Below are positions 7,026-53,291 of a DNA stretch of 64,000 nucleotides, piece after piece. The stretch covers positions 13,993 to 77,992 of the forward strand of contig DATAPH010000060.1 of NCBI GenBank assembly GCA_036265325.1, in the 5' to 3' direction. Position numbers and translations under genes: made by a program. This stretch comes from Actinomycetota bacterium (lineage in GTDB: Bacteria > Actinomycetota > UBA4738 > HRBIN12). The notes under the pieces were generated by a model. It had not been told where the DNA came from, searched no databases, and was given only the letters and a program-made list of their open reading frames with translations. Each line of letters begins with the position of its first letter. Position 1 is the first letter of the stretch.

Positions 7026-7131
7026 GCGGCAAGCCGAGAACGACTGCGTACGAGGCGTCTGCAGGGTCTCACGGCGGCGTGTAGGGTTGCCCTCTCGCGC
7101 ACATGCGTCGGTCTGACATCCGGAGGTTGAG

Positions 7132-26030: not shown

Positions 26031-26033
26031 GGC

Positions 26034-29000
26034 TCAGCCTCGGAGCGTCACGCCGCGGTAGTCCTCCGCGAAGCCGGCCGCGCGGAGCGCCTCGAGCGCC
26101 GGGTGCTCCCACACCGGCACGGCGTCCACCCTCCGAAGCTCGATGCGACGGACGCGCCCGTCCTTCACGAGCGCGGCGAGCGCATCGGCCCAGACGCCCG
26201 GCTCGGCGCCGCCGAAGGTCGTCAGCGTCTTGCCGCCTCGTTCGAGGAATGCGACGGGCTCGCCTTGGTGGATCAGCACGAACGCGCCGGCTGTCCGCGA
26301 GGGACGGCCGGCTGACTCGGGCCACGGCAGCATCGCCCCGAACGGCTGCGCCGGGTCGGCGGCGGACAACGTGAGGATCTCCGCGTCGGGAGCGGGGTCT
26401 CGCACCGCGCGCAGCCGGTCGATCGCGCCCGGCAGCGCGAACTGCGCCGCGCCGAGGCCGGCGACGAAGTAGCCCCGCCGAACGGTCCCGGACGCCTCCA
26501 TCGCGCGGAGCACCGGATAGACGGCGGCGAACCCACCAGGGACGTCTTCGGCGAGGGTCGCCTCACGTGTCAACACCCCGTGCCGGTCGAGCAATTGCAT
26601 CGCGAGCGCGTGCGCGCGCTCCGTCGGCGACGGTTCGGCGGCGAGCCGCTCGACGAGCGACCATCTGCCGGCACCCGCCGGCGGGCCAGACACACGAAGG
26701 GCGCCGGGGCGAGGACGGCCGGTGCCATGCCCGCGGCGACGACCGCTGTTGCCTCGGACGAACGACCGCAACGGGGCGAGCGTGTCGTTCGTGAGCTCGC
26801 CGGCCCATACCAGATCCCACAACGCTCGTAGCACCACCTGTTGGTCGGCGATGCCTGAGGCCGAGAACAGATCTGGCCAGAACGAGGCGCCGCGCTCGGA
26901 GAGGTGCGCCCGGATGGCGTCGTGCACGGCGCCCACGGGCCGGTCGTCGGGCGCAGCCCGCATCAGCACGCCGGCGCGCTCGCGGAACAGGAGCGTCACT
27001 CGCCCGTCGCTCGCGCCGATGGAACCGCGGCCGATCCAGACGACCTCGCCCGACGCCACCAAGCCGTCGAGATCCGTCGGCCGGAACCCGTTGACGCGGG
27101 CGGGAAGCACGTCGGCCTCGAGGATCGACGCCGGGATCGACGCTCCCTGGAGGCGGCCGATCGTCTCGATCAACGCGTCGACGCCGCCGCGCGGGCGGTC
27201 GGCGCCCTGCCACGCGGGCACGAACCGGGCGAACGCCGACGGATCGACCGGCTCGACCTCGCGACGCAAGCGCGCGAGGGAACGCCGCCGGATCCGACGC
27301 AGCACGTCGGGGTCGCACCATTCCCGGTCGCGTCCGCCGGGGCGGAACTCGCCGTGCAGCACGCGTTCGGCCGACTCGAGCGTCTCGAGCGAGGCGCGAA
27401 CGCGGTCGAGGCCGGCCCCAAGGCGAGTCGCGACGTCGTGCGCCTCGAACGGACCGTGGGTCCGCGCGTAGCGCGCGACGAGCACCTCGAGCGGCCGCCC
27501 CTGCGGATCGGTCGGTTCGGTGAACGCCGCCGGGACGCCGATCGGGATCGTGACGCCGAGGGCATCACGCAAGCGTCCGGCGTCTTCGACGGCGGCGATG
27601 CGCGGCTCGCCCGCGACGCGAACCTCGATCGCGCGACCCTCCGCGACGAGCTGCGCGGCCCATCCGTCTACGTCGCCATCGGTTCGGCTCGCGATCTCGT
27701 CGATGCGGAGCGGGCCGAGCTCGCGCAACAGGTCGTGCACACCGTCGAGGCCGCGAGCGTGGCGCCCGTCGGCGAGCCGCTGGAGCTCGAGCTCGACCTC
27801 GTCGAGCGCGGCCGGGTCGAGGAGCTCGCGCAGGTCCTCCGCCCCGAGGAGCTCGCGCAACAGATCGCGATCGAGCGCCAGGGCCGCGGCGCGTCGCTCG
27901 GCGAGCGGCGTCTCCGACTCATACATCGAGACGGCGAGCCACTTGAACAGCAGCGACTGCGCGAACGGCGACGCATGATCCGTATCGACGCCCGCCACGC
28001 GGACACGGCGCGACCGGACGCCGGCCATCAGCTCTTGCAGGGCAGGCACGTCGAAGTAGTCGCGGAGGCACTCCCTGGTCGCCTCGAGCAGGATCGGAAA
28101 CTCAGGGTGTGCGCTTGCCGCCGCGAGCAGGTCGGCGCTCCGTTGTCGTTGTTGCCACAGCGGCGTCCGCATGCCGGGCCTGCGCCGCGGGAGAAGGAGC
28201 GCCCGGGCCGCCGCCTCGCGGAACACCGCGGCGAACAGCGGCGTTCCGGGCAGCACGTCGATGACTGCGTCGGCGACCTCGTCGGGGTCGAAGAGCAGCA
28301 TCTCCATCGGGAGGGTCTCAACCGCCTCGGGCAGTCGAAGCACGATCCCGTCGTCGGTCCACATCACCTGCGCGCCCGGCCCGAACCGGTCGGTGAGTCG
28401 CGCTTCGATCGCGAGGCCCCAGGGCGCGTGGACGCGCGAGCCCCATGGCGTGAGGATGCAGATCCGCCAGTCGCCGAGCTCGTCGCGGAACCGTTCGATG
28501 ACGATGGTGCGGTCGTCGGGAACGGCGGAAGCCTCTGCCTGCTCGTCGACGTACTCGACGAGGTTCCGGGCGGCGCGCTCGTCGAGACCGAGATCGCGCC
28601 CGAGCTCCGCCAAGGCGTCGTCGCGGTGCTTCGATCGCAGCTCGCGGGTGAACTGCCCGATCTTCCGACCGAGCTCGGCCGGGCGCCCCGGGCCCGGCGC
28701 CTTCCAGAACGGAAGCTTGCCGTGCTCGCCCGGCGCGGGCGTCACGATCACACGGTCGCGGGTGATGTCCTCGATCCGCCACGAGCTCGCTCCCAACAGG
28801 AAGACCTCGCCGCGGCGCGACTCGTACACGCATTCCTCGTCGAGCTCGCCAACGCGCGACCCCTCGGCAGTGAAGACGCCGAACAGACCACGGTCCGGGA
28901 TCGTGCCGCCCGACGTGACCGCGATGCGTCCCGCGCCCTCGCGAGCCCGCACCGTGCCGCCGGCGCGGTCCCAGACCACCCGAGGGCGGAGCTCCGCGAA

Positions 29001-30878: not shown

Positions 30879-32303
30879 TCAGGCGGTGAACCGAGCGCCC
30901 AGCTCGAGCACGACCTCGGCGACGAGTTCCACGTCTTGTTCTCGAGCGCGCCAGTTCACGATCGCCGGGCGGAACGCGACCCGGCCGCCGTACACGGTCG
31001 AGCCGAAGAAGACGCGGCCGTCGGTGATCGCGACCTCGCCGATCCTCCGGTTGAGCGCGTCGAGCTCGGGACCGTCCTTCGAACCGGCCGGGCGGTAGCG
31101 GAAGCACACGACGTTGAGCGGCACGTCGGCCAGCCGCTCGAGCTCGGGCGCCTGGTCAACGACCCGGGTAAGATGCTGCGCGAGGTCGAGGTCGTGCTCG
31201 ACGATCGCGCGATGCCCCTCGCGACCGTACGCGCGGAGCGTCGCCCACACGGGGAACGACCGCGCGCGGCGCGACATCTCCGGCCCGCGGTAGCCCCAGT
31301 TCGGCTGCGGCTCGTCGACATCCGGCAGGTACGCTGCTCCGGCGCCGCCAAAGACGGCGGGCAGCAGCGCCTGGTCGTGGACGAAGGCGAAGCCGTTCTC
31401 GTACGGCACGTTGAGCCACTTGTGGCCGTCGGCGATCACCGAGTCGGCTCGTTCGACCCCTTCGACCAGGTGCTTGGTACGCGACGACAGCCCGGCGAAC
31501 AGCCCGAACGCTCCGTCGACGTGGAACCAGGCGTCGTATCGCTCCGCGAGGTCGGCCATCTCGTTGAGCGGATCGAAGTCGCCCGCGTTCACCTCGCCGG
31601 CGCTCCCGATCACGATCGCTGGGCCGCCGTCGAGGTCCCGGAGCTTCGCCTCCATCGCGGCGAGGTCCACGCGACCGACATCGTCACGCGCGAGCTTCTG
31701 CACGCGTGCGCGGCCCACGCCGAGCATCCCGAGCGCCTTGATGTCGCTCGGATGCGTGTAGCCGCCGCCGAGCACGGTGACTGGCGGCGCTGCCGCCACG
31801 CCGAGCTCGTCGACGTCGATCCCGGTGCGCTCGGCGCACCACCGGCGCGCGCACGCGAGCGCCACGAAGTTGGCCATGGTCGCGCCCGTCGTCAGGACGC
31901 CGCCCATCGACGCGGGCAAGCCGAACAACTCCTTCAACCACTCGATCGAGACTTGTTCCAGCCGCGCGGCGAGCGGTGTCGACACCCACGCGCCGGGGTT
32001 CTGATCGGTGGTTGCGGCCAGCCAGTCGGCGCCCAGCGACGCCGGCGTCGCGCCGCCATCGACGAAATGGAAGAACTTCGGCCCGGCCGAGTGCACCGCG
32101 CCATCGAACCCGGCGACGAGCTCCTCGAGGGCTTGGATCGCGCCGACGCCTTGCTCGGGAAGCGGCCCGCCGAAGGTCGCGGCGACCTCGTCGGCGCGGG
32201 GGTCTCGAACCGGGCGGTCGGCGAGCGTGTCGAGGTACTCGGCCGCCTCGCGCGCGGTGAAGTCGACGACCTTCTGGAGCTCGGCCGGGTCCGGCATGCC
32301 CAT
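30879..32303 (-). CDS. PLP-dependent amino-acid decarboxylase (group II; fold type I)
   Basis: DGHKWL PLP-lysine motif; similarity to DABA/aromatic amino-acid decarboxylases. Start at MGMPDP (track M1 is further upstream). Confidence 0.8.
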   Translation of the reverse strand: MGMPDPAELQKVVDFTAREAAEYLDTLADRPVRDPRADEVAATFGGPLPEQGVGAIQALEELVAGFDGAVHSAGPKFFHFVDGGATPASLGADWLAATTDQNPGAWVSTPLAARLEQVSIEWLKELFGLPASMGGVLTTGATMANFVALACARRWCAERTGIDVDELGVAAAPPVTVLGGGYTHPSDIKALGMLGVGRARVQKLARDDVGRVDLAAMEAKLRDLDGGPAIVIGSAGEVNAGDFDPLNEMADLAERYDAWFHVDGAFGLFAGLSSRTKHLVEGVERADSVIADGHKWLNVPYENGFAFVHDQALLPAVFGGAGAAYLPDVDEPQPNWGYRGPEMSRRARSFPVWATLRAYGREGHRAIVEHDLDLAQHLTRVVDQAPELERLADVPLNVVCFRYRPAGSKDGPELDALNRRIGEVAITDGRVFFGSTVYGGRVAFRPAIVNWRAREQDVELVAEVVLELGARFTA

Positions 32304-32359
32304 GGCCCCCGAGTCTACGAGCGCGGGTCCGGAGGCAGGACCGCGCATATCCTGGGTGG

Positions 32360-33118
32360 ATGGACCACGACCGGCCGCTCATCGCCGTTCCCGCGTACCG
32401 GCTCGGGCCCGGCCGCGTGGAGCGGTGGCCCGATGGCGGCTACGGCGTGCCCGCCCCGTACCTCGACGCGCTTCGGAGAGCCGGTGCGCGGACCGCGATC
32501 CTCGCGCCGGGCGAGGTGGCGGAACCCGGCGAACTCCTCGAGCCCTTCGACGGCTTGCTGCTCGTCGGTGGAGGCGACGTCGATCCTGTGCGGTACGGCG
32601 CCGAGCGCGGGGCGCACGACTACGGCGTCGATCCGCAGCGCGACTCGTTCGAGATCGCGCTCGTGCATGCCGCCGATCGAGCGGCGATGCCGACCCTGTG
32701 CATCTGCCGCGGCGCGCAAGTGCTGAACGTGGCGTTCGGTGGGACGTTGCATCAGCACCTGCCCGAGATCGACGGGCTGCTCGAGCACGGCGTGCCGCTC
32801 GACGGCACAACATCTATGCATGATGTCGAGACGGCGCAGCAGACGAAGCTCGGCGGCGCGACCGCCGCAGGATCGCTCCGCTGCTCGTCGCATCATCACC
32901 AGGGCATCGCGTCGGTCGGGACGGGCCTCACCGTCTCCGGACACAGCAGCGACGGACTGGTCGAGGCGATCGAGCGCGAGATGCCCGAGCCCGGATGGCT
33001 CCTCGGCGTCCAGTGGCATCCGGAAGAGACGGCGGCCGCTGATCCGTCGCAGCAGGGATTGTTCGACACGCTGGTTCGGCTGGCGGGAGATCGGGCCGTC
33101 AGCGCGAGCGCGACGTAG
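32360..33118 (+). CDS. gamma-glutamyl-gamma-aminobutyrate hydrolase family protein (PuuD-like, class I glutamine amidotransferase-like / peptidase C26)
   Basis: Catalytic CICRGAQ (nucleophile Cys) and HHHQG/HPE histidine region typical of PuuD. Confidence 0.85.
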   Translation: MDHDRPLIAVPAYRLGPGRVERWPDGGYGVPAPYLDALRRAGARTAILAPGEVAEPGELLEPFDGLLLVGGGDVDPVRYGAERGAHDYGVDPQRDSFEIALVHAADRAAMPTLCICRGAQVLNVAFGGTLHQHLPEIDGLLEHGVPLDGTTSMHDVETAQQTKLGGATAAGSLRCSSHHHQGIASVGTGLTVSGHSSDGLVEAIEREMPEPGWLLGVQWHPEETAAADPSQQGLFDTLVRLAGDRAVSASAT

Positions 33119-33121
33119 CCG

Positions 33122-33904
33122 TCAGACGCGTTCGCCGCCCACGAACGTCGCGGCAACGTGGCGCCAGTACGCGGCGATCGGTTCGACTGGCGCGAGCGAG
33201 CTGAGCTCTTCGCCCGGAGCGTCATGCACCTGGAGCTCGAACGAGCCCGTGTACGCCGGACCGGTCTCGACGTCTCGCGAGCGCAGGACGACCAGCTCGT
33301 CGAGCGCGTCGCCGCCACCGTCGATCGCCGGCATCCACCGCGAGTGCAGCATCGGCAGCGCGTTGACGAACCCAGCCGTGTCGGCGTTGCCTTCGATCGT
33401 GAAGACGGCGTCGATGAGCCGGCGGTCGTTCGCGGCGAGCGTCGCGCCGATGCGCCCACCCGGCTCCAACCGCGGCCCCGCCTTGCCGATCGACGTCGGC
33501 CGCGTCATCCAGATCGACCCGAGCTTCTTCGGATAGCCCTGGAACCAGCCGCGGGCCAGCGCGAAGTCCTTGTCGACCCAGATCAGGATGCACCGCGAGT
33601 ACGTCTCGCCGTTGTGGCGGCATCGCACGACGATGAACGCCTCCTTGTATTGGGAGCGCACGGGATCGAGCAGTTCCGCGCCGTCGTCGCTGCACGATTG
33701 CCAGTCCGCGAAGACGACGGCGACCGCATCGGGGTCGTCCTCGGCGGGCTCGACGCCGGCCGGCAGCCATCGCCGGACGGACCCCGCGGCCGCGCGGTAT
33801 TCCATCGTCAGGACGTCGCCCGAGTAGTGCCACGGGGGAGCGGGAACGAGCGACGCCGCGCCTTCGGGTGAGCGTGGCGCGAGGAAGCCGCGGAGCTCAG
33901 CCAT
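33122..33904 (-). CDS. acetoacetate decarboxylase (ADC) family protein
   Basis: PAPPWHYSGD N-terminal motif of the ADC-like fold. Start at MAELRG; the 58-aa extension in the track is rejected. Confidence 0.75.
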   Translation of the reverse strand: MAELRGFLAPRSPEGAASLVPAPPWHYSGDVLTMEYRAAAGSVRRWLPAGVEPAEDDPDAVAVVFADWQSCSDDGAELLDPVRSQYKEAFIVVRCRHNGETYSRCILIWVDKDFALARGWFQGYPKKLGSIWMTRPTSIGKAGPRLEPGGRIGATLAANDRRLIDAVFTIEGNADTAGFVNALPMLHSRWMPAIDGGGDALDELVVLRSRDVETGPAYTGSFELQVHDAPGEELSSLAPVEPIAAYWRHVAATFVGGERV

Positions 33905-33923
33905 CGGGGCGGATAATACGTCG

Positions 33924-34769
33924 ATGGAGACGCGCCGCATCGTTCTGCAAGGTCGTCCCGTGACGGTGACCCGCGAAGGCGACGAGCTCGTCACCGACGA
34001 CGGCGAGCGCGTCGCGATCGACGCGGGACAGCACCTTCCTCCCACCGAGCCGTCGAAGATCATCTGCGTGCATCTCAACTACGAGAGCCGGCGCGCCGAG
34101 TTCCAGGCGACGCTCGCGGCGGCCCCGACGTATTTCCACAAGCCGGTGAGCGCGCTCAACCATCACGAGGGCGATGTGGTGCGGCCCCCTCGATGCCGCT
34201 ACCTCAACTACGAGGGCGAGATCGCGATCGTGATCGGCCAGCGCACGCTGCATGTCTCGCCCAGCGAGGCCGAACAACGGATCCTCGGCTACACGGTCGC
34301 GAACGATTACGGGTTGCACGACTTCCGCGACACCGATGCGGGCTCGATGCTTCGCGTGAAGGGCTCCGACACGCTGTGTCCGCTCGGACCGGGCCTCGTC
34401 ACCGACTGGGACTTCCGCGGCAAGCAGATCGAGACCCGCGTCAACGGTGAGATCCAACAGGCAGGATCGACCGACGAGATGATCTGGGACATGCCGTATC
34501 TCGTCGCTGACATCGCGCGCACCATCACCCTTGAGCCCGGCGACGTGATCCTCTCGGGCACGCCGGCCAACTCGCGTCCCGTGGAGCCCGGCGACGTGGT
34601 TGAGGTCGAGGTTGAGGGCTTAGGAACGCTGCGGAACACGATCGTCGAGGGTGACGTCGCGGTCCGCGACGATGTCGGCGCGCAGCCGAGCTCCTCCGAA
34701 GAGGTCGAATCGACGGCGTTCGGCGGCGACTGGGAGTTCCGCGGCATCCGTCCGCCCATGAAAACCTGA
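33924..34769 (+). CDS. fumarylacetoacetate hydrolase (FAH) family protein
   Basis: KIICVHLNY, YEGEIAIVIG and DxTxRD-like metal-binding region; 281 aa. Confidence 0.85.
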   Translation: METRRIVLQGRPVTVTREGDELVTDDGERVAIDAGQHLPPTEPSKIICVHLNYESRRAEFQATLAAAPTYFHKPVSALNHHEGDVVRPPRCRYLNYEGEIAIVIGQRTLHVSPSEAEQRILGYTVANDYGLHDFRDTDAGSMLRVKGSDTLCPLGPGLVTDWDFRGKQIETRVNGEIQQAGSTDEMIWDMPYLVADIARTITLEPGDVILSGTPANSRPVEPGDVVEVEVEGLGTLRNTIVEGDVAVRDDVGAQPSSSEEVESTAFGGDWEFRGIRPPMKT

Positions 34770-34810
34770 CCCGGAGTATGCTCGGCCGAGGTAGATAGTT
34801 CGTATCCAAA

Positions 34811-34860
34811 GGAGTCGACCGAGGGAGTCGACCAAGGGAGTCGACCAAGGGAGTCGAGTG
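34811..34860. repeat. 3.8 tandem copies of a 13-bp unit (GGAGTCGACCRAG) immediately upstream of and running into the GTG start of the glutamine-synthetase-like gene
   Basis: Direct reading: ggagtcgaccgag ggagtcgaccaag ggagtcgaccaag ggagtcgagtg. Each unit carries an SD-like GGAG and a GTCGAC palindrome. Confidence 0.85.
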
Positions 34861-36162
34861 GAGACGAACGGAACACGGCTTCGACTGCTGTGGTCGGACA
34901 TCCACGGCATCGAGCGAGGCAAATACCTCTACGGCAACTGGGCGGAGCGTGGACGCGCCAACTTCTGTCTCGCGACCTTCCCGCTCACGTTCGACCGAGA
35001 GATCCTGCCGATCGAAGGGCTTGCCTTCGACGTCGGACTGCCCGACCTCGAAGCGACGATCGAGCCAGACAGCTTGCGGACCGGTTGGGAGCCGGAGACG
35101 ACCGTCGGGATCGGGCGGCTCAGCCGGCTCGACGCGCCGCTCGCCGTCGATCCGCGGCATCTGTTGGAACAAGCCGTCGCCTCGTGGATCGCGCGCGGCC
35201 TCACGCCGCAGATCGCGTTCGAATTCGAGTTCTACTTGTTGCGACCGGATGGCGAGGATGGCTGGCTCCCACTCTCCACGCCGGGCTCACGCGTGTACGG
35301 AACAGGCATGGCCGTCGACCCAGACGGTGTCGTCGCCGAGATCGTCGCTGCGGCTGCTGCGGCCGGTCTGGATGTCGAGGCGTGGTGCACCGAGTTCGAC
35401 GATTCGCAGTTCGAGGTCAACATCCGCTACCGCGACGCCGTCACCGCGGCCGACGACGCGTTCCTGTTCCGCGTGCTTGCGCACGAGATCGCCACGTCGC
35501 GTGGGCATCGCGCCACGTTCATCGGGCGGCCGTTCGCCGAACGCGGTGGCTCGGGTCTGCACGTGAACATCAGCTTCTGGGACGCAGCCGGCACCAACGT
35601 GCTCTACGACCCGAGCGATGCCGAGGGCCTGAGCGATCTGGCGCGGAACTGCATGGCCGGGATGCTGGCCCATCACGAAGGAACGGCGGCGATCCTGGCG
35701 CCGACCGTGAACGCCTACAAGCGCCTGCTGCCCGACATGATGAACGGCTACTGGGCGAACTGGGGGCACGACGATCGCACGGTGGCGATCCGGATCGGTC
35801 CCGACCGGGGTGACTCGACCCGCCTGGAGAACCGTGTGCCCGACGGCGCGTGCAACCCGTACCTCGCGGCTGCGGCCCTGCTCCACGCCTGCCGGTTCGG
35901 CGTCGAGGACGCGATGACGATGCCCCCCGCACAGCCGATCGCGGCGCAGCCGACCGGCGATCACATCCCGGCGACGCTGGAGGCCGCCGTCGAGGCGATG
36001 GGCCGCGACGACCGGCTGTGCGACGCACTCGGGGCGCCGTTCGTCGATGCGTTCTCGCAGCTCAAGCTCGCAGAGTGGAAGCGGTACACGGAAGCGGTGG
36101 ACGATCCGGCCACGTCGGATCCGACGCCGTGGGAGCTCGACTACTACACCCCGTTCTTCTGA
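34858..36162 (+). CDS. glutamine synthetase family protein (type III-like; gamma-glutamyl-amine ligase, PuuA/IpuC-like)
   Basis: GS catalytic-domain motifs (EFEFYL, GSGLHVNISFWD, NPYLAAAA) without the GlnA N-terminal regulatory features; 434 aa; GTG start. Confidence 0.85.
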   Translation: METNGTRLRLLWSDIHGIERGKYLYGNWAERGRANFCLATFPLTFDREILPIEGLAFDVGLPDLEATIEPDSLRTGWEPETTVGIGRLSRLDAPLAVDPRHLLEQAVASWIARGLTPQIAFEFEFYLLRPDGEDGWLPLSTPGSRVYGTGMAVDPDGVVAEIVAAAAAAGLDVEAWCTEFDDSQFEVNIRYRDAVTAADDAFLFRVLAHEIATSRGHRATFIGRPFAERGGSGLHVNISFWDAAGTNVLYDPSDAEGLSDLARNCMAGMLAHHEGTAAILAPTVNAYKRLLPDMMNGYWANWGHDDRTVAIRIGPDRGDSTRLENRVPDGACNPYLAAAALLHACRFGVEDAMTMPPAQPIAAQPTGDHIPATLEAAVEAMGRDDRLCDALGAPFVDAFSQLKLAEWKRYTEAVDDPATSDPTPWELDYYTPFF

Positions 36163-36172
36163 TGGAGCGTTC

Positions 36173-37423
36173 GTGACGGCCGTCCTCGATGGGATCGATC
36201 TGGCCGATCCCGACAACTTCGTCGACGGGGTGCCCTACGACTGGTTCCGGCGACTGCGCGAGGAAGCGCCGGTCGCGTGGCATCCCGAGCCGGGATCGAA
36301 CGCCGGATTCTGGGCGGTCACGCGCTACGACGACCTCGTCGCGATCCACATGGATTGGGCGACGTATTCGTCCGAGGTCGGCGCCGTCTCACTGGAAGAG
36401 CTCGATCCCGAGCAGCTCGAGATCCGGCGGTCCATGCTCGAGACCGACCCGCCACGGCACACGAAGCTCCGGTCGATCTGCGCCAAGCGGTTCAGCGCGC
36501 GCGGGGTGGGGCAGTACGCCGACTGGATCCGAGACGTCGCACGCGAGGTGCTCGATGCGGCGCTGCTGAGCGACGAACCCTTCGACTTCGTCGGCTCGAT
36601 CAGTCGCGAGCTGCCGATCCGGTTCCTATGCTCGATCTTCACCGTGCCGCAAGAAGATGCGCCGCAGCTGATCTCGTGGGGCGACAAAATGATCGCGAAC
36701 CAGGACCATGAGCTGTCCGCCGCGGTCATCGACAAGGTCGACACCGAGGAATACCGACTGCTGCCGTTCCGCTCGCCGGTCGCACGGGACGTGTTCGCGT
36801 ACGCAGATGCGCAGGCCGACGAGCGACGTGCAGAACCGAGCGACGATGTGATCCAGGCGCTCGTCACCGCCCAGAACGAAGGCGTGCTGAACGAGCGCGA
36901 GTTCCACAACTACTTCTCGCTGCTGATGATCGCGGGCAACGAAACGACGCGGCACACGATCAGCGCCGGGATGCTGGCGCTGATGGCGAACCGCGACCAG
37001 ATGCAGCTGTTGACCGACGAGCCCGAGCGCATCCCCCTGGCCGTCGAAGAGATCCTTCGGTGGGCGACGCCGGTGCTGCATTTCCGCCGGACGGCGACCC
37101 GCGACGTCGAGCTGCGTGGGGAGACCATCCACGCTGGCGACAAGGTCGTAACGTGGTACATCAGCGCCAACCGCGACGAGGACGCCTTCGACGAGCCGGG
37201 CGCGTTCGACGTGACGCGCAAGCCGAACGACCACGTCACGTTTGGTCCGGGCGGTCCGCACTTCTGTCTCGGCGCGCACCTGGCACGCCTCGAGGCCACG
37301 ATCCTGTTCGAGGAGCTGCTCCCGCGGATCCGGTCCATCGAGCTCGCCGGCCCGACCGAACGCATCCGCTCGAACTTCGTCAACGGCATCAAGCGGATGC
37401 CGGTGCGGATCGAAACGCGCTAA
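36173..37423 (+). CDS. cytochrome P450
   Basis: Heme-binding loop FGPGGPHFCLGAHLAR, EEILRW (ExxR) and AGNETT I-helix. GTG start 10 nt after the GS-like stop, with GGAG 6 nt upstream. Confidence 0.9.
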   Translation: MTAVLDGIDLADPDNFVDGVPYDWFRRLREEAPVAWHPEPGSNAGFWAVTRYDDLVAIHMDWATYSSEVGAVSLEELDPEQLEIRRSMLETDPPRHTKLRSICAKRFSARGVGQYADWIRDVAREVLDAALLSDEPFDFVGSISRELPIRFLCSIFTVPQEDAPQLISWGDKMIANQDHELSAAVIDKVDTEEYRLLPFRSPVARDVFAYADAQADERRAEPSDDVIQALVTAQNEGVLNEREFHNYFSLLMIAGNETTRHTISAGMLALMANRDQMQLLTDEPERIPLAVEEILRWATPVLHFRRTATRDVELRGETIHAGDKVVTWYISANRDEDAFDEPGAFDVTRKPNDHVTFGPGGPHFCLGAHLARLEATILFEELLPRIRSIELAGPTERIRSNFVNGIKRMPVRIETR

Positions 37424-37923
37424 GACCCGTCGCGGTCCTGGACGCTTCGTGACAACGATCTGAGCAACGACGCCAAACGGTCTTGATCGCGCTCGCCGAG
37501 CGTGCCGGCGATCGCCGTTTCCTCGGCGTTGAATCTCGGGAACAGGTGCTCGATCGTCGTGCGACCGGCCGGGGTGAGCGACACGAGGACACTCCGACCG
37601 TCGTCCGGGTCGGCGCGACGGGCGATCCACCCGCGGGCGTCGAGGGTCCGCAGCACCCCGGTCGCCGTCGGACGGCTGATCCCGACGGCCTCGGCGAACG
37701 CGTTCGCGCCGAGCTCTCCCCAGACCCACAGGACCCAGAGCGCGACGAACCCGGTCCACGACACTCGTTCGGTCGCGAGCACCTTCCCCTCCATATGCCG
37801 GCGAACCGCGGCCGCGCTCCGGAACAGATTCGAGATCGCCCACATCGCGCGGAAGTCCAGCTGCCGGTCGCCGAGCGTCTCCAGAACCTTGCGTTCTGCG
37901 GGCAGCAGGTCGTCCGCGCTCAT
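37420..37923 (-). CDS. MarR family transcriptional regulator
   Basis: Winged-HTH pattern (ISRPTATGVLRTLDARGWIARRADPDDGRS); 167 aa; ATGA-type overlap with the upstream decarboxylase; stop overlaps the convergent P450 stop. Confidence 0.85.
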   Translation of the reverse strand: MSADDLLPAERKVLETLGDRQLDFRAMWAISNLFRSAAAVRRHMEGKVLATERVSWTGFVALWVLWVWGELGANAFAEAVGISRPTATGVLRTLDARGWIARRADPDDGRSVLVSLTPAGRTTIEHLFPRFNAEETAIAGTLGERDQDRLASLLRSLSRSVQDRDGS

Positions 37924-39335
37924 GCCGCGCCCGACATCAGCCGGCCGCCGAGCTCACGGGCAACGTCCAAGATCGCCTCGACGTCTTCATCGGTGGTTCG
38001 GAAGTTCACGAAGCACGGACGGAGCCACACCTCGCCGTCGATCAGCGCCGACGCGAGGTAGATCCGGCCGTCGGACTGGATCGCGTCGGCGAGCCGCTGG
38101 TTGTGCGCATCGACCGCGACGCCCGTTGGCGCATGCCGGAAGGGCACGATCGAGAGCTGCGGAGGAGCTTCGAATACCTCGAAGTCCTCGCTCGACTGCG
38201 CCCGGCGGTAGAGCAGGTCGGCCTCTTCCAGGTTGCGGGCGATCGCGTCGCGGAACTGCTGAGCCCCGTGGGCACGGAAGGCCAGCCACGCCTTGAGCGC
38301 GCGGAACGGCCGCGAGTACTCGAGGGTGATATCGGCAGCGTGCAGTTCGTGCTGCTGGTGGGGGAGATACCCCTGCTCGTGCGAGAACGACTCCTCGAAG
38401 GCATCCCCGTGTCGGCTCATGACGACGCCGCACGCCTTGGGCAGGTAGAGCCATTTATGCGCGTCGACCGAACACGAGTCGGCGCGAGCCAGCCCGGCGA
38501 ACACCTCGGGACGGATCGCCGCGGCCGGAAGTCCGTAGGCGCCGTCGACGTGGAGCCAAACCTCGGCTGCTTCGCAGGCATCCGCGACCGCGTCCAGATC
38601 GTCGACCGCGCCGGTCAAGGTCGTGCCGGCCGACGCCACGACGGCCACGGGCGTCGCGCCGTCGGCTCGGTCGGCTGCGATCGCGTCCGCCAGCAGGTCT
38701 GGGCGCATCCGTCGGAGCGGATCCAGCGGGATCGCACGCAACCGGTCCGACCCGATGCCCAGCAGCTCCACTGCACGGGTCACCGAGTAGTGAACCTCCT
38801 CCGAGCAGTACACGACGGGGCGCTGGCCGCCGAGTCCGGCGTGCCGCGACCCCGGCAACGCGCGTTCGCGCGCGGCCGCCAGCGCCGTCAGGTTGCTGAT
38901 GGTTCCACCGCTGGTGAAGGCGCCCGTCGCCACGGGATACCCGACGAACGATCCGATCCAGCGCACCGCCTGCTGTTCCACAACGGTCGCCGCCCGCGCG
39001 TCGACCGCGAGGTTGATGTCGTACGTGTGCGCGAGCAGGTCGCCGATCGCGCCGATCGGCAGCCCGCTCGACCCGATGAAGGCAAAGTACCGCGGCCGTG
39101 GCTGTGCGATCGATTCGTCCAGGATCCGTGCCGCATCGTCGAGCGCCTCATGGACAGGCACGGGCTCTTCCGGCAATCCCGCCCTGATCAACGCGCGGAC
39201 GCGATCGTCCAGCGGCGGCTCCTCCGGGCGGAACCGGTCGAACGACCCCCATGCTTCTTCGACGAGCCGCGCCGCGTGCGCCAGCGCCTCCTCGCGAGGG
39301 GCGTCGAGGCGCAGCGGCCGCTCGTCGTCGGTCAT
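37920..39335 (-). CDS. PLP-dependent decarboxylase (group II pyridoxal-dependent decarboxylase family)
   Basis: SVDAHKWLYLPKACG (PLP-Lys) and HVDGAYG. Start at MTDDERP; the track fuses this ORF with the upstream permease frame. Confidence 0.85.
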   Translation of the reverse strand: MTDDERPLRLDAPREEALAHAARLVEEAWGSFDRFRPEEPPLDDRVRALIRAGLPEEPVPVHEALDDAARILDESIAQPRPRYFAFIGSSGLPIGAIGDLLAHTYDINLAVDARAATVVEQQAVRWIGSFVGYPVATGAFTSGGTISNLTALAAARERALPGSRHAGLGGQRPVVYCSEEVHYSVTRAVELLGIGSDRLRAIPLDPLRRMRPDLLADAIAADRADGATPVAVVASAGTTLTGAVDDLDAVADACEAAEVWLHVDGAYGLPAAAIRPEVFAGLARADSCSVDAHKWLYLPKACGVVMSRHGDAFEESFSHEQGYLPHQQHELHAADITLEYSRPFRALKAWLAFRAHGAQQFRDAIARNLEEADLLYRRAQSSEDFEVFEAPPQLSIVPFRHAPTGVAVDAHNQRLADAIQSDGRIYLASALIDGEVWLRPCFVNFRTTDEDVEAILDVARELGGRLMSGAA

Positions 39336-40873
39336 CCGATCCCTTCCGCGCGCACGCCGGCCGGATTGATCCCGTCCGCCTCGTCGGAGCGGAGCTCGTC
39401 GAGGACGCTGCTCGCCGGCGCCCGTCCCTTCATCACGAACGCGACGATCAGGCCGAGGACCGCCCACACCGCGACGTACTCCCAGACCAGGTTGAACGGC
39501 GACGGCTGCTTGTAGATTCCGCCGAAGACGGCGGCGACCGAGATCGCGACGCCGATCAGCGCCGCGATCACGACGCCGACGTAGTTCGCGCCCTCGCGCA
39601 AGCCCCAGAACGAGCCCAGCGCGAGGAGCCCGTAGACGACCATCAGCGCGAACCCACCGAACGTCGACAGCCACAGGAACATGTCGAAGAAGTGCGGGCT
39701 CGGGCTCGCGCTCGCGAACACCGAGTCTGCGAACTGCGCGATGCCGACCATGATCAGCGACACCGCCTCGACGAAAATGATCGCCGCGACCGGCGTGCCA
39801 CGGCGATGAGCGACCGCCGCCAGGCCGCCCGGGATCCGCCGGTCGCGCGCCAACGCGAACACGCCGCGTGCGGACGCGACCGCCGCACCCAGTCCAACCG
39901 CGAGGATGTCGAGGAGCACCACGACCTCGAGCACCTTCAGGATGAAGTCCGAGCCGTACCCTCCTGCCGCCGTCGGTGATCCGAGTGCGAACAACGGCGC
40001 GGCGGCGACGGCGGGATCGGTGATGACGGAGAGGTCTTGCCCGAACCCGACGATCTGCGCGTAGGCCGCGATCAGGTAGAACACCGTCGCGATCAACACC
40101 GTGTACAGCACCGCGCGAGGGATCGACCGCTTCGGCTCGGCCGTTTCTTCCCCCAGGTTCGCCGCCGTCTCGAACCCGACGAAGATCAACACGCCGTACA
40201 GGACGCCGAACATGATGCCGCTCCATCCGTCCGCGGCCGAGCTCGGCTTGAACGGCTCGAGGTTCGTGTTCGGCGCATCCACGATCACCTTGACGAAGAA
40301 CGCGAGCACCACGACGGCCGACGCGAGCGCCAGTGTCAGCTGCGCCCGGGTCGAGATGTGAACGCCGAGGTACTGCACCAGGAACACCGCCGCGACGAAG
40401 ATGAGGCTCCAGCCCCACATCGGCAAGGGCGACGTGGACGAAAGCACGCCCGGAACCGCCGGGTCGACGGTGAAGATCACGTCGTGGACGTACCAGCCGA
40501 CCAGGCACGCGATCGCCGACGCCAGGACCGTGGTGCCGCCGTAGTAGATCCAACCGGCGAACGCGCCCGCTCGGCCGCCCAGACCGTTCGACACGTAGTC
40601 GTAGAGCGAGCCAGCCGCGTGTACCCGCTTCGCATACTGCGCGACGATCCAGCCGAGCGCGAACGTCCCGATCGCCGCGAGCAGCACGGCGAGCGGCGTC
40701 GCAACACCCGCGCCCTTGCCCGACGCGCTCACTCCCGCGATCAGCGGGATCAGGAACGCCGCCGAGAACACGGGTCCCATGAACCCGACCGATTGCGAGA
40801 TGCAGTCCACCAGCCGAAGCCGCTTCGCGCCGAGGCGCTCGTAGCCCAGCTTCTCCTCCGGCATGTCCGCCAT
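39332..40873 (-). CDS. APC superfamily amino acid / polyamine permease
   Basis: Twelve predicted TM helices with APC-type consensus (GSGIF-like region GKGAGVATP, FVGFE). ATG of MADMPEEKL is preceded by GGGAGAGGGGGA. Overlaps the decarboxylase start by 4 nt. Confidence 0.85.
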   Translation of the reverse strand: MADMPEEKLGYERLGAKRLRLVDCISQSVGFMGPVFSAAFLIPLIAGVSASGKGAGVATPLAVLLAAIGTFALGWIVAQYAKRVHAAGSLYDYVSNGLGGRAGAFAGWIYYGGTTVLASAIACLVGWYVHDVIFTVDPAVPGVLSSTSPLPMWGWSLIFVAAVFLVQYLGVHISTRAQLTLALASAVVVLAFFVKVIVDAPNTNLEPFKPSSAADGWSGIMFGVLYGVLIFVGFETAANLGEETAEPKRSIPRAVLYTVLIATVFYLIAAYAQIVGFGQDLSVITDPAVAAAPLFALGSPTAAGGYGSDFILKVLEVVVLLDILAVGLGAAVASARGVFALARDRRIPGGLAAVAHRRGTPVAAIIFVEAVSLIMVGIAQFADSVFASASPSPHFFDMFLWLSTFGGFALMVVYGLLALGSFWGLREGANYVGVVIAALIGVAISVAAVFGGIYKQPSPFNLVWEYVAVWAVLGLIVAFVMKGRAPASSVLDELRSDEADGINPAGVRAEGIG

Positions 40874-40893: not shown

Positions 40894-41787
40894 CTAGGCG
40901 GCCGCGTCCGTCCACCCTTCCGCGGGACGCTCGAACCACACGTGCACCTGCCCGGTGCCGACCGATGCCTCGTATTCGCTGAATAGCTCGCCCGGCGCAC
41001 GACACTCGGCGCCGCCCATCGCCGCGGCCATCATCAGGTAGTGACCGAAATGGCCCTCGGGGTAGGCCTTCCGGTAGGTCGGCATGTTGTCGATCACGCC
41101 GGCGTGGTCGCCCTTCTGCATCAGCTCGAGCACGCGCATGTCGGCGTCGTAGTACGCGCGATCGTAGATGTTGTCCGGCGCCCGCTGGGCCTCACGCTGC
41201 CGGAGCTCCTTGAACCCGAAGAACCGGTGCGTCATGCCGCCCGAGGCGAGCAACACAACACGGCGGTCGCTCTCGGCGATCGCCTGCCCGATCAGCGACC
41301 CGAGCAGCAGGAAGTCGTCGGTGTCGCAGCATTGGTTGAGCGCGACACTCAGCCAGCTCGTGTCGGGGTCGCCGAGGAACGACCAGATGTTGACTGTGCC
41401 GTAGAAGATCGGCAGGTACGGGTCGTCGGACGCGAGGATCCAACAGTCGTCACGGCCCTCGGCCTGCGCGGCGATCCGCTTCGCGAGGTCAGGGTCGCCC
41501 GGCATGTCGTACGGGATCTGGCGCATGCCCCGTGGGAGCTCGCTGCTCGTGAACAGGCCCTGTCGCCGGTCCTGTGCGGTCACGATGTGCTCGAACGTCG
41601 ACTCCCAGTGTGTGTCGAAGACGATCACCGTGTCCGGCTTCAGCCGATCGATGCACTCGCTCTTCATCCGTTGCAGGCCTGGGACCAGGGAGATCTCCTT
41701 GCCGTCGTTGAGCTCGAGCCGGACGTCCTCCGGCAGCATGATCGTCGGAACGTGCGCGACCAGCGCCGCGCCCACCACCTCACCCAT
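40894..41787 (-). CDS. class III extradiol ring-cleavage dioxygenase (LigB / AmnB family catalytic subunit)
   Basis: N-terminal VVGAALVAHVPTIM, and H..W..H.. metal ligands (DTHWES, GGMTHRF) typical of the LigB superfamily. Confidence 0.8.
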   Translation of the reverse strand: MGEVVGAALVAHVPTIMLPEDVRLELNDGKEISLVPGLQRMKSECIDRLKPDTVIVFDTHWESTFEHIVTAQDRRQGLFTSSELPRGMRQIPYDMPGDPDLAKRIAAQAEGRDDCWILASDDPYLPIFYGTVNIWSFLGDPDTSWLSVALNQCCDTDDFLLLGSLIGQAIAESDRRVVLLASGGMTHRFFGFKELRQREAQRAPDNIYDRAYYDADMRVLELMQKGDHAGVIDNMPTYRKAYPEGHFGHYLMMAAAMGGAECRAPGELFSEYEASVGTGQVHVWFERPAEGWTDAAA

Positions 41788-41796
41788 CAGTCCTCC

Positions 41797-43317
41797 TCAC
41801 CCGCCGGACGGCGGCGCTGTCACGACGTTCTTCACGTCTGCGTAGAAGTCGAAGCTCCAGCGACCCCCCTCGCGGCCGATCCCTGAGTTTCGCGACCCGC
41901 CGAACGGCGCGTCGAGATCGCGCACGAAGAAGCAGTTGACCCACACAGTGCCGGCGACGAGCTGCTCGCCGACCCGTCGCGCGCGCGCCTCGTCGCCCGT
42001 GTAGACGGTCGCGGCCAGGCCGTAATCGGTGCTGTTGGCGAGCTCGATCGCCTCCGCCTCGTCACGGAACGGCTGCGCCGTCAGCACGGGTCCGAAGATC
42101 TCCCGCGTCAACAGCGGCGAGCCATCCGGCACATCGACGAAGACGGTCGGCCGGTAATAGAGCCCGCCGAGATCCTCGTTCGGACCGCCTCCGACGAGCG
42201 CCCTCGACCCTTCGTCGTGTCCGGCCCGGACGAACCCGTCGACGCGCTCGAAGTGTTCGCGGCTGATGAGCGGCCCGATGTCGGTCGGCTCGTTGCGAGG
42301 GTCGCCGACGACAACGCGGGCCGCTACCTCAGCGAGACGTTCGAGGAAGTCGTCGTAGATCGAGGACTCGATCAAGAGACGGGTACCGGCAAGGCAGACC
42401 TGGCCCGCGTTGTCGAACTGGCCGACCGCCTGGTTCAGCGCCGCGCCCCGGTCCGCGTCGGCGAAGATCAAGAATGGCGACTTGCCGCCGAGCTCGAGGG
42501 ACGTCGGGGTGAGGTTCTGGGCCGCCGCCGCAGCGACGAACCTCCCCGTTTCGACCGATCCGGTGAACGCGATCCGGCTCACGCCAGGGTGGGCGACCAG
42601 AGCCGCGCCCGCCTCCTCACCGATCCCTTGGACGACGTTGTAGGCGCCGGCGGGGAGTCCGGCGTCGAGCGCGATATCGCCGAGCAGCGACGCGGTGAGC
42701 GGCGCCCACTCCGGCGGCTTGTGTACGACGGCGTTCCCGGCGGCGAGCGCCGGCGCGATCCGCCACGTTGCAAGCATCAGCGGCGCGTTCCACGGTCCGA
42801 TCACCGCGGTGACGCCCGACGGATCCCACGTGAATCGCTCGCGGTTGCCGTTGAAGGTCGCGTCCCCTTCCGCCTCGATCTCGAGCAACTTGTCGGCGAA
42901 GAACCGGAAGTTGCGTGCGACCCGAGGCATCACCGACCGGCGGTGCGACCGGAGGAGCGATCCGTTGTCGCGCGTTTCAACGACCGAGATCTCTTCGACC
43001 CTGGCCTCGACGCCGTCGGCGATCCGGTGCAGAACGGCAGCGCGGTCCTTCGGCGGCGTGCGTCCCCATCCGCGGGCGGCGTGATCCGCCGAGGCGACCG
43101 CGAGATCGACGGTGTCTGCATCGCCGCGTGCAACCTCGGCGATGACCTGTTCGTCGATCGGCGAGACGTCCGAGAACCGTTGCTGCGAACCGAGGCGTTC
43201 GCCGCCAACCAGATGGTCGGTCGAGACCTCGACCCCTTCGACCACGGCGCGCTCGTCCGTTGGCTCCTCCAGATGGTTCGTATCCGAACGGTATGGCTGG
43301 AGGCTTTGCGCTGTCAA
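41797..43317 (-). CDS. NAD(P)-dependent aldehyde dehydrogenase (semialdehyde dehydrogenase-like)
   Basis: ELGGKSP, catalytic FDNAGQVCLAGTRL (Cys) and GSVETG motifs; 506 aa. Confidence 0.9.
   Translation of the reverse strand: MTAQSLQPYRSDTNHLEEPTDERAVVEGVEVSTDHLVGGERLGSQQRFSDVSPIDEQVIAEVARGDADTVDLAVASADHAARGWGRTPPKDRAAVLHRIADGVEARVEEISVVETRDNGSLLRSHRRSVMPRVARNFRFFADKLLEIEAEGDATFNGNRERFTWDPSGVTAVIGPWNAPLMLATWRIAPALAAGNAVVHKPPEWAPLTASLLGDIALDAGLPAGAYNVVQGIGEEAGAALVAHPGVSRIAFTGSVETGRFVAAAAAQNLTPTSLELGGKSPFLIFADADRGAALNQAVGQFDNAGQVCLAGTRLLIESSIYDDFLERLAEVAARVVVGDPRNEPTDIGPLISREHFERVDGFVRAGHDEGSRALVGGGPNEDLGGLYYRPTVFVDVPDGSPLLTREIFGPVLTAQPFRDEAEAIELANSTDYGLAATVYTGDEARARRVGEQLVAGTVWVNCFFVRDLDAPFGGSRNSGIGREGGRWSFDFYADVKNVVTAPPSGG

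Positions 43318-52079: not shown

Positions 52080-52083
<4 letters not shown>
49978..52083 (-). CDS. uncharacterised 701-aa protein, putative glycoside hydrolase (N-terminal TIM-barrel-like region plus C-terminal GH42-type trimerisation/class I GATase-like domain)
   Basis: Strongly coding (GC3-rich) with 4-nt overlaps to both neighbours. C-terminal [10 protein letters not shown]...[11 protein letters not shown]...[14 protein letters not shown] resembles the beta-galactosidase trimerisation domain. I recognise no named family signature. Confidence 0.75.

Positions 52084-53291
<1,208 letters not shown>

Follow-up and report, generated by a model that had tools for sequence, protein, structure and literature searches.

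A gene cluster of about 12 kb in a member of the Actinomycetota (assembly GCA_036265325.1, contig DATAPH010000060.1, positions 13,993 to 77,992; this whole stretch of 64,000 nucleotides is called the window below) appears to encode the breakdown of an aromatic amine after its attachment to glutamate. In the reading that we favour, to which we assign a probability of about 0.5, the cluster is a catabolic unit under the control of a MarR-family regulator. Its substrate would be an amine derived from an aromatic amino acid, most likely tyramine or dopamine formed from tyrosine or L-DOPA (3,4-dihydroxyphenylalanine), and the gamma-glutamyl group would stay on the nitrogen through fission of the ring. 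The broader claim, namely aromatic-amine catabolism that combines glutamylation, a cytochrome P450 and a meta-cleavage route resembling that of homoprotocatechuate (Hpa), is regarded as probable. More tentatively, we put forward the full combination of a gamma-glutamyl group retained through P450 hydroxylation and extradiol fission, a hydratase-aldolase of the acetoacetate decarboxylase (ADC) fold, convergence on the intermediates of the E. coli Puu pathway, and a spread across Actinomycetota and Alphaproteobacteria.

Genes were called from third-position G+C content and open reading frame (ORF) structure, with families assigned by Pfam, in a window of about 68% G+C. All seven genes that the first-pass annotation had named between 30879 and 37923 exist and give strong Pfam matches. 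The module outlined there is real as far as it goes, but its right half was missed: the unit extends on the minus strand to about 43317, with a second decarboxylase, a permease, a LigB-superfamily dioxygenase and an aldehyde dehydrogenase (ALDH). The core order is an ADC-fold gene on the minus strand, then genes for a fumarylacetoacetate hydrolase (FAH) family enzyme, a glutamine synthetase (GS)-like ligase and the P450 on the plus strand, and finally MarR, decarboxylase no. 2, permease, LigB and ALDH on the minus strand. The last five form an operon, ALDH-LigB-permease-decarboxylase-2-MarR, which begins near 43317 and has MarR as its last gene. ALDH and LigB are separated by 9 bp and LigB and the permease by 20 bp; two 4-nt overlaps follow, the one between decarboxylase no. 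2 and MarR being an ATGA.

The GS-like protein (34858-36162, plus strand; 434 aa; PF00120, E=7e-83) is central to this reading. In bona fide glutamine synthetases of type I (GSI), D50 and E327 bind and deprotonate ammonium, and Y397 marks the GSI-beta type. The protein was aligned with GlnA and PuuA of E. coli, the protein annotated as IpuC in P. aurescens TC1, and homologues from related clusters. The residues of the metal, ATP and glutamate sites (E129, E131, E212, E220, H269, R321, R339, R344, E357 and R359) are invariant. D50 is not conserved, in an N-terminal region that aligns loosely, and the flap position E327 is occupied by methionine, or by leucine in more distant cluster homologues. 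H271 and N264 are replaced by asparagine and glycine, positions at which the window clade and the alphaproteobacterial homologues both depart from GlnA, and a gap at Y397 removes the adenylylation tyrosine. Because the residues of ligase chemistry are kept and D50 and E327 of the ammonium site are lost, the protein is predicted to be an ATP-dependent gamma-glutamyl ligase for amines and not a glutamine synthetase. The earlier suspicion that it is no bona fide glutamine synthetase is thereby borne out, and no true GlnA was found in the window. The ligase appears to form a clade of its own, being 40% identical to the GS-like protein of the Novosphingobium cluster described below, 31% to IpuC, 30% to PuuA and 28% to GlnA. 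It reaches 186 bits against the GlnA family TIGR00653 (cut-off 429) and 222 bits against the GGputSyn family (cut-off 650). Among solved structures, it scores 158 bits with GS I-alpha, 144 with GmaS, 109 with PA5508 and 100 with 8WWU, which is NpaA1 (PMC11335346). In public records, the cluster genes are named either generically or wrongly, for example as "glutamine synthetase family protein".

With this protein as a query, 38 distinct loci were recovered from one-genome-per-species collections, all of them in metagenome-assembled genomes of uncultured Actinomycetota, at 58-95% identity. Every cluster protein was then searched by tblastn in the 38 loci, and the counts refer to those with enough flanking sequence. 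The P450 gene is present in 33/33 loci, always after the ligase gene, followed in frequency by FAH (28/30), ADC (26/28), MarR (24/31), LigB (15/22), ALDH (12/20), decarboxylase no. 2 (15/27) and the permease (11/23). A hydrolase of peptidase family C26 lies upstream in 4/24 loci, and in two more it follows the P450; decarboxylase no. 1 was found in 2/22. The gene arrangement is not due to chance. The genes are co-conserved across the 38 loci, so that the grounds named at the outset for rejecting the module do not apply. The C26 hydrolase and decarboxylase no. 1, which the first-pass annotation had stressed, are the least conserved parts. Gene order is variable: locus L029 reads FAH-GS-P450-GATase-C26-ALDH-LigB-permease on one strand (GATase, glutamine amidotransferase), and in L054 ALDH-LigB-MarR faces P450-M20 peptidase-GS. 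As a separate observation, 1.4-3.2 kb are inserted between the ligase and P450 genes in L001 (11438-14435), L021, L023, L024, L028 and L030. The inserted genes encode a Vgb_lyase-like beta-propeller and a saccharopine-dehydrogenase-like protein in L001 and the latter protein alone in L023. These loci have no LigB, ALDH or decarboxylase gene within 10 kb and may represent a functionally different variant.

Four cultured strains proved to carry the module when annotated plasmids were searched by tblastn. Novosphingobium sp. EMRT-2 carries MarR, LigB (54% identical), P450 (43%), GS (40%), ALDH (48%), ADC (57%) and FAH (71%), together with a second ALDH, one of the two lying right after GS, and a 2Fe-2S ferredoxin. 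In Streptomyces canus NBC_00633, GS and P450 (50%) are followed by ferredoxin, FAD reductase, ADC (58%), ALDH (59%), LigB (49%) and FAH (71%), and the cluster continues with a TetR regulator, a second P450, a permease, a PuuC-like ALDH and a PuuD-like hydrolase (43%). Plasmid pSLUN1 of S. lunaelactis has a permease and GS, MarR (46%) and ADC (55%), the PuuD-like and PuuC-like pair, ALDH (63%), LigB (49%), FAH (71%) and a PLP (pyridoxal 5'-phosphate) enzyme resembling tyrosine decarboxylases, and it has no P450. Embleya sp. NBC_00896 has the same set, with a P450 at 52%. Across lineages, identity to the window proteins is 71% for FAH, 48-63% for ALDH, 55-58% for ADC, 49-54% for LigB, 43-52% for P450 and 33-40% for GS. 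Ruegeria sp. TM1040 has only a GATase, a P450 (44%) and GS (39%), beside paaABCD; on its megaplasmid (L042, 6758-10284), this trio also lies next to a reductase gene, and it may form a route from phenylethylamine to phenylacetate via gamma-glutamylation. On the S. canus plasmid (L048, 6294-8856), the second P450 is unrelated (29%) and is accompanied by its own ferredoxin and an F420-dependent LLM oxidoreductase; both enzymes could provide extra hydroxylation steps for a less oxidised substrate.

The plasmid setting of these versions bears on the suggestion, made when the module was first noticed, that the gamma-glutamyl group might serve as a transient protecting group in the biosynthesis of a specialised metabolite. 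Two cultured versions do lie on Streptomyces linear plasmids near secondary-metabolite genes, with a condensation-domain protein, an aromatase/cyclase and a SARP regulator as neighbours on pSLUN1. The conserved set, however, has no non-ribosomal peptide synthetase (NRPS), polyketide synthase (PKS), cyclase or tailoring core. What it does encode is a predicted path all the way to pyruvate, together with a permease for uptake and a repressor resembling HpaR; the window surroundings consist of glycoside hydrolases and sugar transporters. A biosynthetic role is therefore considered highly improbable. The more specific idea of DOPA cleavage of the lincomycin or pyrrolobenzodiazepine type was dropped, given the missing NRPS and the catabolic lower pathway. 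The gamma-glutamyltyramine of methanofuran synthesis, the sole literature match for this compound, is unrelated, as its ligase is an ATP-grasp enzyme.

The substrate is suggested by the genes that the first pass had not seen, together with two that it had. For four genes, the best NCBIfam family belongs to the homoprotocatechuate pathway (HpaD, HpaE, HpaG and HpaR), and all four stay below the equivalog cut-offs. The LigB protein (40894-41787, minus strand; 297 aa; PF02900, E=1e-26, 94 bits over profile positions 2-268 of 269) reaches 144 bits against HpaD_Fe (cut-off 316) and is 30% identical to E. coli HpaD. Its best solved relative is 3,4-dihydroxyphenylacetate 2,3-dioxygenase (8iq8), followed by beta subunits of 2-aminophenol dioxygenase, and it is 49-54% identical to homologues beside GS-like genes in Streptomyces, Embleya and Novosphingobium. 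The ALDH (41797-43245, minus strand; 482 aa; PF00171, E=1e-151) scores 512 bits against HpaE (cut-off 638), with 42% identity to E. coli HpaE, 59-63% to the first ALDH of the Streptomyces clusters and 40% to PuuC. The single-domain FAH-family enzyme (33924-34769, plus strand; 281 aa; PF01557, E=6e-57) reaches 193 bits against the C-terminal domain of HpaG (cut-off 276); it is 34/27% identical to E. coli HpaG and 71% to the FAH proteins of the S. canus, S. lunaelactis and Novosphingobium clusters. The MarR-family regulator (37420-37923, minus strand; 167 aa; PF01047, E=8e-14) has HpaR as its best family, far below the cut-off, with 32% identity to E. coli HpaR and 46% to the MarR of the S. lunaelactis cluster. 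A side observation concerns names: this LigB subfamily is labelled "catechol 1,2-dioxygenase", an intradiol enzyme, in NCBI records (L041, 6682-7539; L047, 13387-14361; P0121; P0147; others), and the JGI name for these proteins is 3,4-dihydroxyphenylacetate 2,3-dioxygenase. The NCBI label is probably a systematic misannotation.

Searches of the window by tblastn with the E. coli proteins (E<=1e-3) gave no match to HpaF, HpaH, HpaI, HpaB or HpaC. The ADC-fold enzyme (33122-33904, minus strand; 260 aa; PF06314, E=8e-54) is of the MppR/Sbi00515 type, scoring 201 bits with MppR (4jm3), 162 with Sbi00515 (4zbo) and 211 against the MppR equivalog (cut-off 380), and it shares 55-58% identity with its counterparts in the Streptomyces and Novosphingobium clusters. 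Both relatives reportedly act on 2-oxo acids derived from pyruvate, through aldol and dehydration chemistry. Its K126, in the PKK motif (GYPKKLG), aligns with the Schiff-base lysines K156 of MppR and K122 of Sbi00515. In S. solfataricus, ADC-like proteins are induced together with a meta-cleavage pathway and were proposed to act as the aldolase (PMC7820114). Because the Schiff-base lysine is kept and such a precedent exists, we infer that the ADC-fold enzyme may replace HpaH and HpaI as a single hydratase-aldolase. This replacement tracks the presence of the GS-like ligase, since a Sphingobium cluster without the ligase, whose LigB is 40% identical, keeps the canonical hpcH aldolase and hpcG hydratase. 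Among plasmid-database LigB matches of at least 49% identity, 5/5 adjoin a GS-like gene; true HpaD is about 30% identical.

The amine itself would be supplied by a group II PLP-dependent decarboxylase. Decarboxylase no. 2 (37920-39335, minus strand; 471 aa, called from the frame plot and translation) has the tryptophan decarboxylase of R. gnavus (4obu, 200 bits) and DOPA decarboxylase (7xin, 167 bits) as its best solved relatives; its PLP lysine lies in the motif DAHKW, and the PLP-stacking histidine was confirmed by eye. Decarboxylase no. 1 (30879-32348, minus strand; 489 aa; PF00282, E=2e-46) is 30% identical to it and has the same two structures as best relatives. The first is an accessory gene restricted to the closest relatives, and the second is the conserved one. 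Neither reaches an NCBIfam equivalog cut-off, and the catalytic-loop tyrosine that distinguishes decarboxylases from aldehyde synthases is not reliably alignable with pig DDC, GAD65 or the R. gnavus enzyme. The counterpart in S. lunaelactis is closest to tyrosine decarboxylases. The permease (39332-40873, minus strand; 513 aa; PF00324, PF13520) belongs to the APC family of amino-acid permeases and has generic NCBIfam matches only. Since an amino-acid permease and an aromatic-type decarboxylase accompany a cleavage set that is Hpa-like without being equivalog, the substrate is predicted to be an arylethylamine whose catechol is an analogue of homoprotocatechuate. This points to dopamine, reached by hydroxylation of tyramine or directly from DOPA. 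The substrate had been called unpredictable before; the decarboxylase, permease, HpaD- and HpaE-like enzymes, HpaG-like FAH and HpaR-like MarR together point to a 4-substituted catechol with an aminoethyl side chain.

The proposed route would begin with import of the amino acid by the permease and its decarboxylation to an arylethylamine, which the ligase would couple, at the expense of ATP, to the gamma-carboxyl of glutamate. The P450 would then hydroxylate the ring of the gamma-glutamyl amide to a catechol, gamma-glutamyl-dopamine, and the LigB dioxygenase would cleave the ring adjacent to the diol, in the manner of HpaD acting on homoprotocatechuate. The HpaE-like ALDH would oxidise the resulting semialdehyde, and the HpaG-like FAH enzyme would isomerise and decarboxylate the product. 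The ADC-fold enzyme would take over the part of HpaH and HpaI as a hydratase-aldolase working through a Schiff base, and would release pyruvate and gamma-glutamyl-4-aminobutanal. A PuuC-type ALDH and the C26/PuuD-type hydrolase would finally yield glutamate and GABA (gamma-aminobutyric acid). The carbon count follows the textbook Hpa pathway: with a 2-(gamma-glutamylamino)ethyl group in place of carboxymethyl, the aldol products are pyruvate and gamma-glutamyl-4-aminobutanal. The latter is what PuuC oxidises physiologically; the gamma-glutamyl-GABA so formed is in turn the substrate of PuuD. The retained gamma-glutamyl group would block cyclisation of the free amine onto the aldehyde or ketone of the ring-fission product and onto the quinone. 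In the extradiol chemistry of DOPA, which leads to betalamic acid and muscaflavin, a ring-fission product with a free aminoethyl group is expected to cyclise spontaneously.

The prediction of gamma-glutamyl-4-aminobutanal preceded inspection of the Streptomyces clusters, which then showed the PuuC-like/PuuD-like pair. In the Streptomycetaceae, the second ALDH has PuuC as its best NCBIfam family, is 49-51% identical to E. coli PuuC and is translationally coupled to the PuuD-like hydrolase. This coupling suggests that deglutamylation may be the end of the pathway. The window hydrolase (32360-33118, plus strand; 252 aa; PF07722, E=2e-52) has PuuD as its best family (89 bits, cut-off 266), shares 36% identity with E. 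coli PuuD and 41-43% with the hydrolases of the Streptomyces clusters, and keeps the invariant triad Cys114-His222-Glu224. No PuuB-type FAD amine oxidase occurs in the cluster.

An earlier release of the amine would follow the Pseudomonas isopropylamine (Ipu) scheme, whose logic was originally proposed for the module: the amine would be glutamylated, hydroxylated by the P450 and at once deglutamylated by the C26 hydrolase. Ring cleavage would then act on the free hydroxylated amine, for instance dopamine. The trio of GS-like protein, P450 and GATase or C26 hydrolase mirrors the ipu-like region of plasmid pTC1 of P. aurescens TC1, where the GS-like gene is annotated ipuC. A hydrolase directly follows the P450 in L026 and L029, and an M20 peptidase lies between GS and P450 in L054. 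The proteins are not orthologues, however, being only 31% (IpuC) and 30% (the TC1 P450) identical; the hydrolase of the Streptomyces and Embleya versions is coupled to the PuuC-like ALDH and not to the P450; and the free aminoethyl product would cyclise, which would make it unsuitable for catabolism. The logic of glutamylation followed by P450 action is reasonable, given the coupled ligase and linked hydrolases, whereas simple release of the hydroxylated amine is not supported and is considered quite unlikely.

The P450 gene (36173-37423, plus strand; 416 aa; PF00067, E=2e-24) starts 10 nt past the ligase stop, in agreement with the first pass, with a GTG preceded by GGAG. Its motifs are intact: AGNETT in the I-helix, EILR for EXXR, and FGPGGPHFCLG in the cysteine-ligand loop. 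Its closest solved relatives are a reconstructed CYP125 ancestor (404 bits), CYP126, CYP124 and CYP125; it is 50-52% identical to the cluster P450s of S. canus and Embleya and 43-44% to those of Novosphingobium and Ruegeria. Because S. lunaelactis has the ligase, the lower pathway and the PuuC/PuuD pair without a P450, this enzyme is probably not the one that removes nitrogen. The pattern fits a P450 needed just for making the catechol and dispensable if the catechol derives from DOPA.

Several points weigh against the favoured reading. All chemical steps are deduced, and the substrate is named from family resemblance alone. The CYP124/125/126 neighbourhood, in which the window P450 sits, is known for omega-hydroxylation of aliphatic compounds and not for phenol hydroxylation. 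A search of the 64-kb window for ferredoxin and ferredoxin reductase found none; redox partners are present in the S. canus (ferredoxin, FAD reductase) and Novosphingobium (2Fe-2S ferredoxin) versions. A PuuC-like ALDH was likewise sought in the window and not found, the HpaE-like enzyme being the sole ALDH, and the C26 hydrolase is lacking in the Novosphingobium cluster and, within 10 kb, in most related loci. Across lineages, GS shows the lowest conservation of all components, so that cluster versions may take different amines. About one third of the loci retain nearby just ADC, FAH, GS, P450 and MarR, and in bacterium HR12 the two sets are split between contigs, with ALDH-LigB-permease on one of 354 kb and GS-P450-MarR on a second. 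Finally, the paa context of the Ruegeria pair hints at oxidation of C-alpha, giving an arylacetaldehyde plus glutamine.

That last point leads to an oxidative deamination, in which the P450 would hydroxylate the carbon next to the amide nitrogen of glutamylated dopamine, phenylethylamine or tyramine. The carbinolamide would fall apart into arylacetaldehyde and L-glutamine, and an ALDH would form homoprotocatechuate, which a divergent Hpa pathway would convert into pyruvate and succinic semialdehyde. Alpha-hydroxylation next to nitrogen is the P450 step proposed for cyclic-amine pathways, which counts in favour of this scheme. A hydrolase would not be needed, fitting its absence from most loci and from Novosphingobium, where two ALDHs occur and one directly follows GS; the Ruegeria P450-GS pair adjoins paaABCD, and the second ALDH of S. 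canus scores 486 bits against the phenylacetaldehyde dehydrogenase StyD, compared with 568 against PuuC. Retention of the glutamyl group is nevertheless preferred, because S. lunaelactis, which has no P450, retains GS and the complete lower pathway, the lower-pathway enzymes form distinct subfamilies far below the Hpa cut-offs, three hydrolase folds (C26, class-I GATase and M20) recur beside GS and P450, and a free amine is expected to cyclise. Furthermore, the ADC-fold enzyme replaces HpaH/HpaI only where the GS-like gene is present, the window holds a single ALDH, and it has no 4-hydroxyphenylacetate hydroxylase, which matters if tyramine is the substrate. Oxidative deamination is thus judged unlikely.

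It could also be argued that two independent modules merely lie side by side, a generic amine-detoxifying GS-like/P450 pair and a decarboxylase-fed, Hpa-like aromatic pathway. The third of loci without LigB, ALDH and decarboxylase within 10 kb, the separate contigs of HR12 and the isolated P450-GS-GATase set of Ruegeria would agree with this. Against it, the two halves occur together in four lineages of two phyla despite differences in gene order and strand, the lower-pathway ADC and FAH genes are the tightest partners of GS and P450 (26/28 and 28/30), the 5/5 close plasmid LigB matches adjoin a GS-like gene, and an operator-like site is common to the promoters of both halves. A chance neighbourhood of this kind is very unlikely, and the single pathway with a retained glutamyl group remains the preferred explanation.

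The promoters were read as follows. That of the ALDH operon (43276-43317, minus strand) has a -35 box TTGACA (43312-43317) and a -10 box TACCGT (43288-43293) with an 18-nt spacer, and a palindromic candidate operator, GTTCGGATACGAAC (43276-43289), overlaps the -10 box. The arrangement TTGACA-N18-TACCGT-TCG..CGAAC is kept in more than 12 relatives, and the perfect GTTCG-N4-CGAAC occurs in the 64 kb a single time, at this promoter. The GS-P450 promoter region (34777-34857, plus strand) contains a -10-like TATGCT (34777-34782) and the operator-like GTTCGTATCCAAAG (34798-34811), which is identical to the ALDH-promoter site at 12/14 positions on the same strand. Upstream of the ligase in relatives, TAT[GC]CT and GTTCG-N4-CGAA(G/C) are conserved, with sites of the GTTCGGGTACGAAG type. 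The operator-like site common to both promoters would fit control of both operons by one repressor, presumably the cluster MarR. The operator is proposed solely from its position and its conservation across species, and a palindrome search allowing 2 mismatches (129 matches against 75 expected) is too permissive for defining a regulon.

Directly upstream of the ligase start lies a 13-bp tandem repeat in four copies (34806-34857, plus strand; repeat score 90) with the unit CCAAGGGAGTCGA, so that the ribosome-binding site of the ligase is present four times; 16 related loci have a single copy of the unit (CCAAAGGAGTCGAGTG). The repeat could be an assembly artefact, or it could stem from slipped-strand amplification with effects on translation or operator spacing. 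The ADC-like gene starts at ATG 33904 and not at the ORF end 34078, which leaves 19 bp, CGGGGCGGATAATACGTCG (33905-33923, read from sequence), before the divergent FAH start. A single AT-rich hexamer in this gap could serve as the -10 box of both genes, which would be leaderless. Decarboxylase no. 1 and the C26 hydrolase likewise start 11 bp apart (32349-32359), compared with 19 bp for ADC and FAH, and in each gap a single TANNNT-like hexamer (TATCCT; GATAAT/TATTAT) lies 6-8 nt away from the start codons. Such short gaps suggest leaderless mRNAs from overlapping, back-to-back promoters.

Two further starts were revised. The permease begins at ATG 40873, preceded by GGGAGAGGGGGA, and the ALDH at GTG 43245, the TTG of its mechanical ORF being the -35 box of the ALDH promoter. 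To its left, the cluster borders on an Lhr helicase gene, and to its right on a GH9 cellulase gene; the remainder of the window encodes glycoside hydrolases, sugar ABC transporters, a DNA ligase and a histidine kinase. Rfam and tRNA scans found no RNA genes in the window. Two large upstream ORFs were considered as NRPS/PKS genes and rejected; they encode an adenylate-cyclase/AAA/TPR protein and the Lhr helicase. The former (21697-26325, minus strand; about 1540 aa) combines zinc-ribbon, adenylate/guanylate cyclase, AAA_16 ATPase and TPR domains. Because its mechanical ORF shares about 290 nt with the 3' end of the ORF of the Lhr helicase, its start is uncertain. Two long ORFs with strong coding signal in third-position G+C (7117-8634, plus strand, 505 aa; 49978-52278, minus strand, 766 aa) have no Pfam match at E<=1e-8.

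If the favoured reading is true, the cluster would represent a third bacterial route for aromatic biogenic amines, besides the amine oxidase and transaminase routes. It would explain the purpose of glutamylation as protection of the nitrogen during ring fission, a logic so far discussed mainly for biosynthesis. It would also give a physiological role to ADC-fold "aldolase-dehydratases", a role outside lipid and steroid metabolism to a CYP124/125-like P450, and a role to a LigB subfamily named "catechol 1,2-dioxygenase" by at least one annotation pipeline. Uncultured soil Actinomycetota commonly carry the cluster, and its presence in cultured strains makes the proposal directly testable. Literature searches of incomplete coverage found no description of the combination of GS-like protein, P450 and extradiol enzyme, which is not proof of absence, and nothing relevant on catabolism of gamma-glutamyl-tyramine, -dopamine, -tryptamine or -phenylethylamine.

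Each enzyme family and each half of the logic are already known, glutamylation from the Puu, Ipu, Atd and Npa systems and meta-cleavage from Hpa. The E. coli hpaGEDFHI genes with HpaR share with the cluster a LigB extradiol dioxygenase, an NAD-dependent semialdehyde dehydrogenase, an FAH-type isomerase/decarboxylase and a MarR-type repressor. In contrast, the FAH protein of the cluster has one domain and HpaG two, an ADC-fold enzyme stands in place of hydratase and aldolase, and a GS-like ligase, a P450 and decarboxylases are added. The ADC-fold enzyme shares with MppR and Sbi00515 the fold family and the Schiff-base lysine in the PKK motif, but its context is catabolic, and the reaction would run toward hydration and retro-aldol cleavage.

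The Puu pathway (PuuA-PuuD of E. coli) likewise has a GS-like ATP-dependent ligase and a C26 hydrolase with the same triad, and the predicted late intermediates of the cluster, gamma-glutamyl-4-aminobutanal and gamma-glutamyl-GABA, are those of Puu. Here, however, the substrate is aromatic, and the aldehyde would come from aldol cleavage of the ring-fission product instead of amine oxidation. The Ipu system (IpuC, the P450 IpuD with redox partners, and IpuF) resembles the cluster in a ligase next to a P450 and a GATase/C26 hydrolase, and its P450 acts on the gamma-glutamyl amide, as proposed here; the cluster differs in its decarboxylases and ring cleavage and in a hydrolysis that is probably late. 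In arylamine degradation by AtdA1/TdnQ (aniline), NpaA1 (1-naphthylamine) and the "GoaS" enzymes, the arylamine is glutamylated before oxygenation to a catechol (PMC11335346). The substrate of the oxygenase is therefore a gamma-glutamyl amide, as in the proposed route, but a Rieske dioxygenase removes the nitrogen in those systems, whereas the cluster has a P450 and the nitrogen lies on an alkyl side chain.

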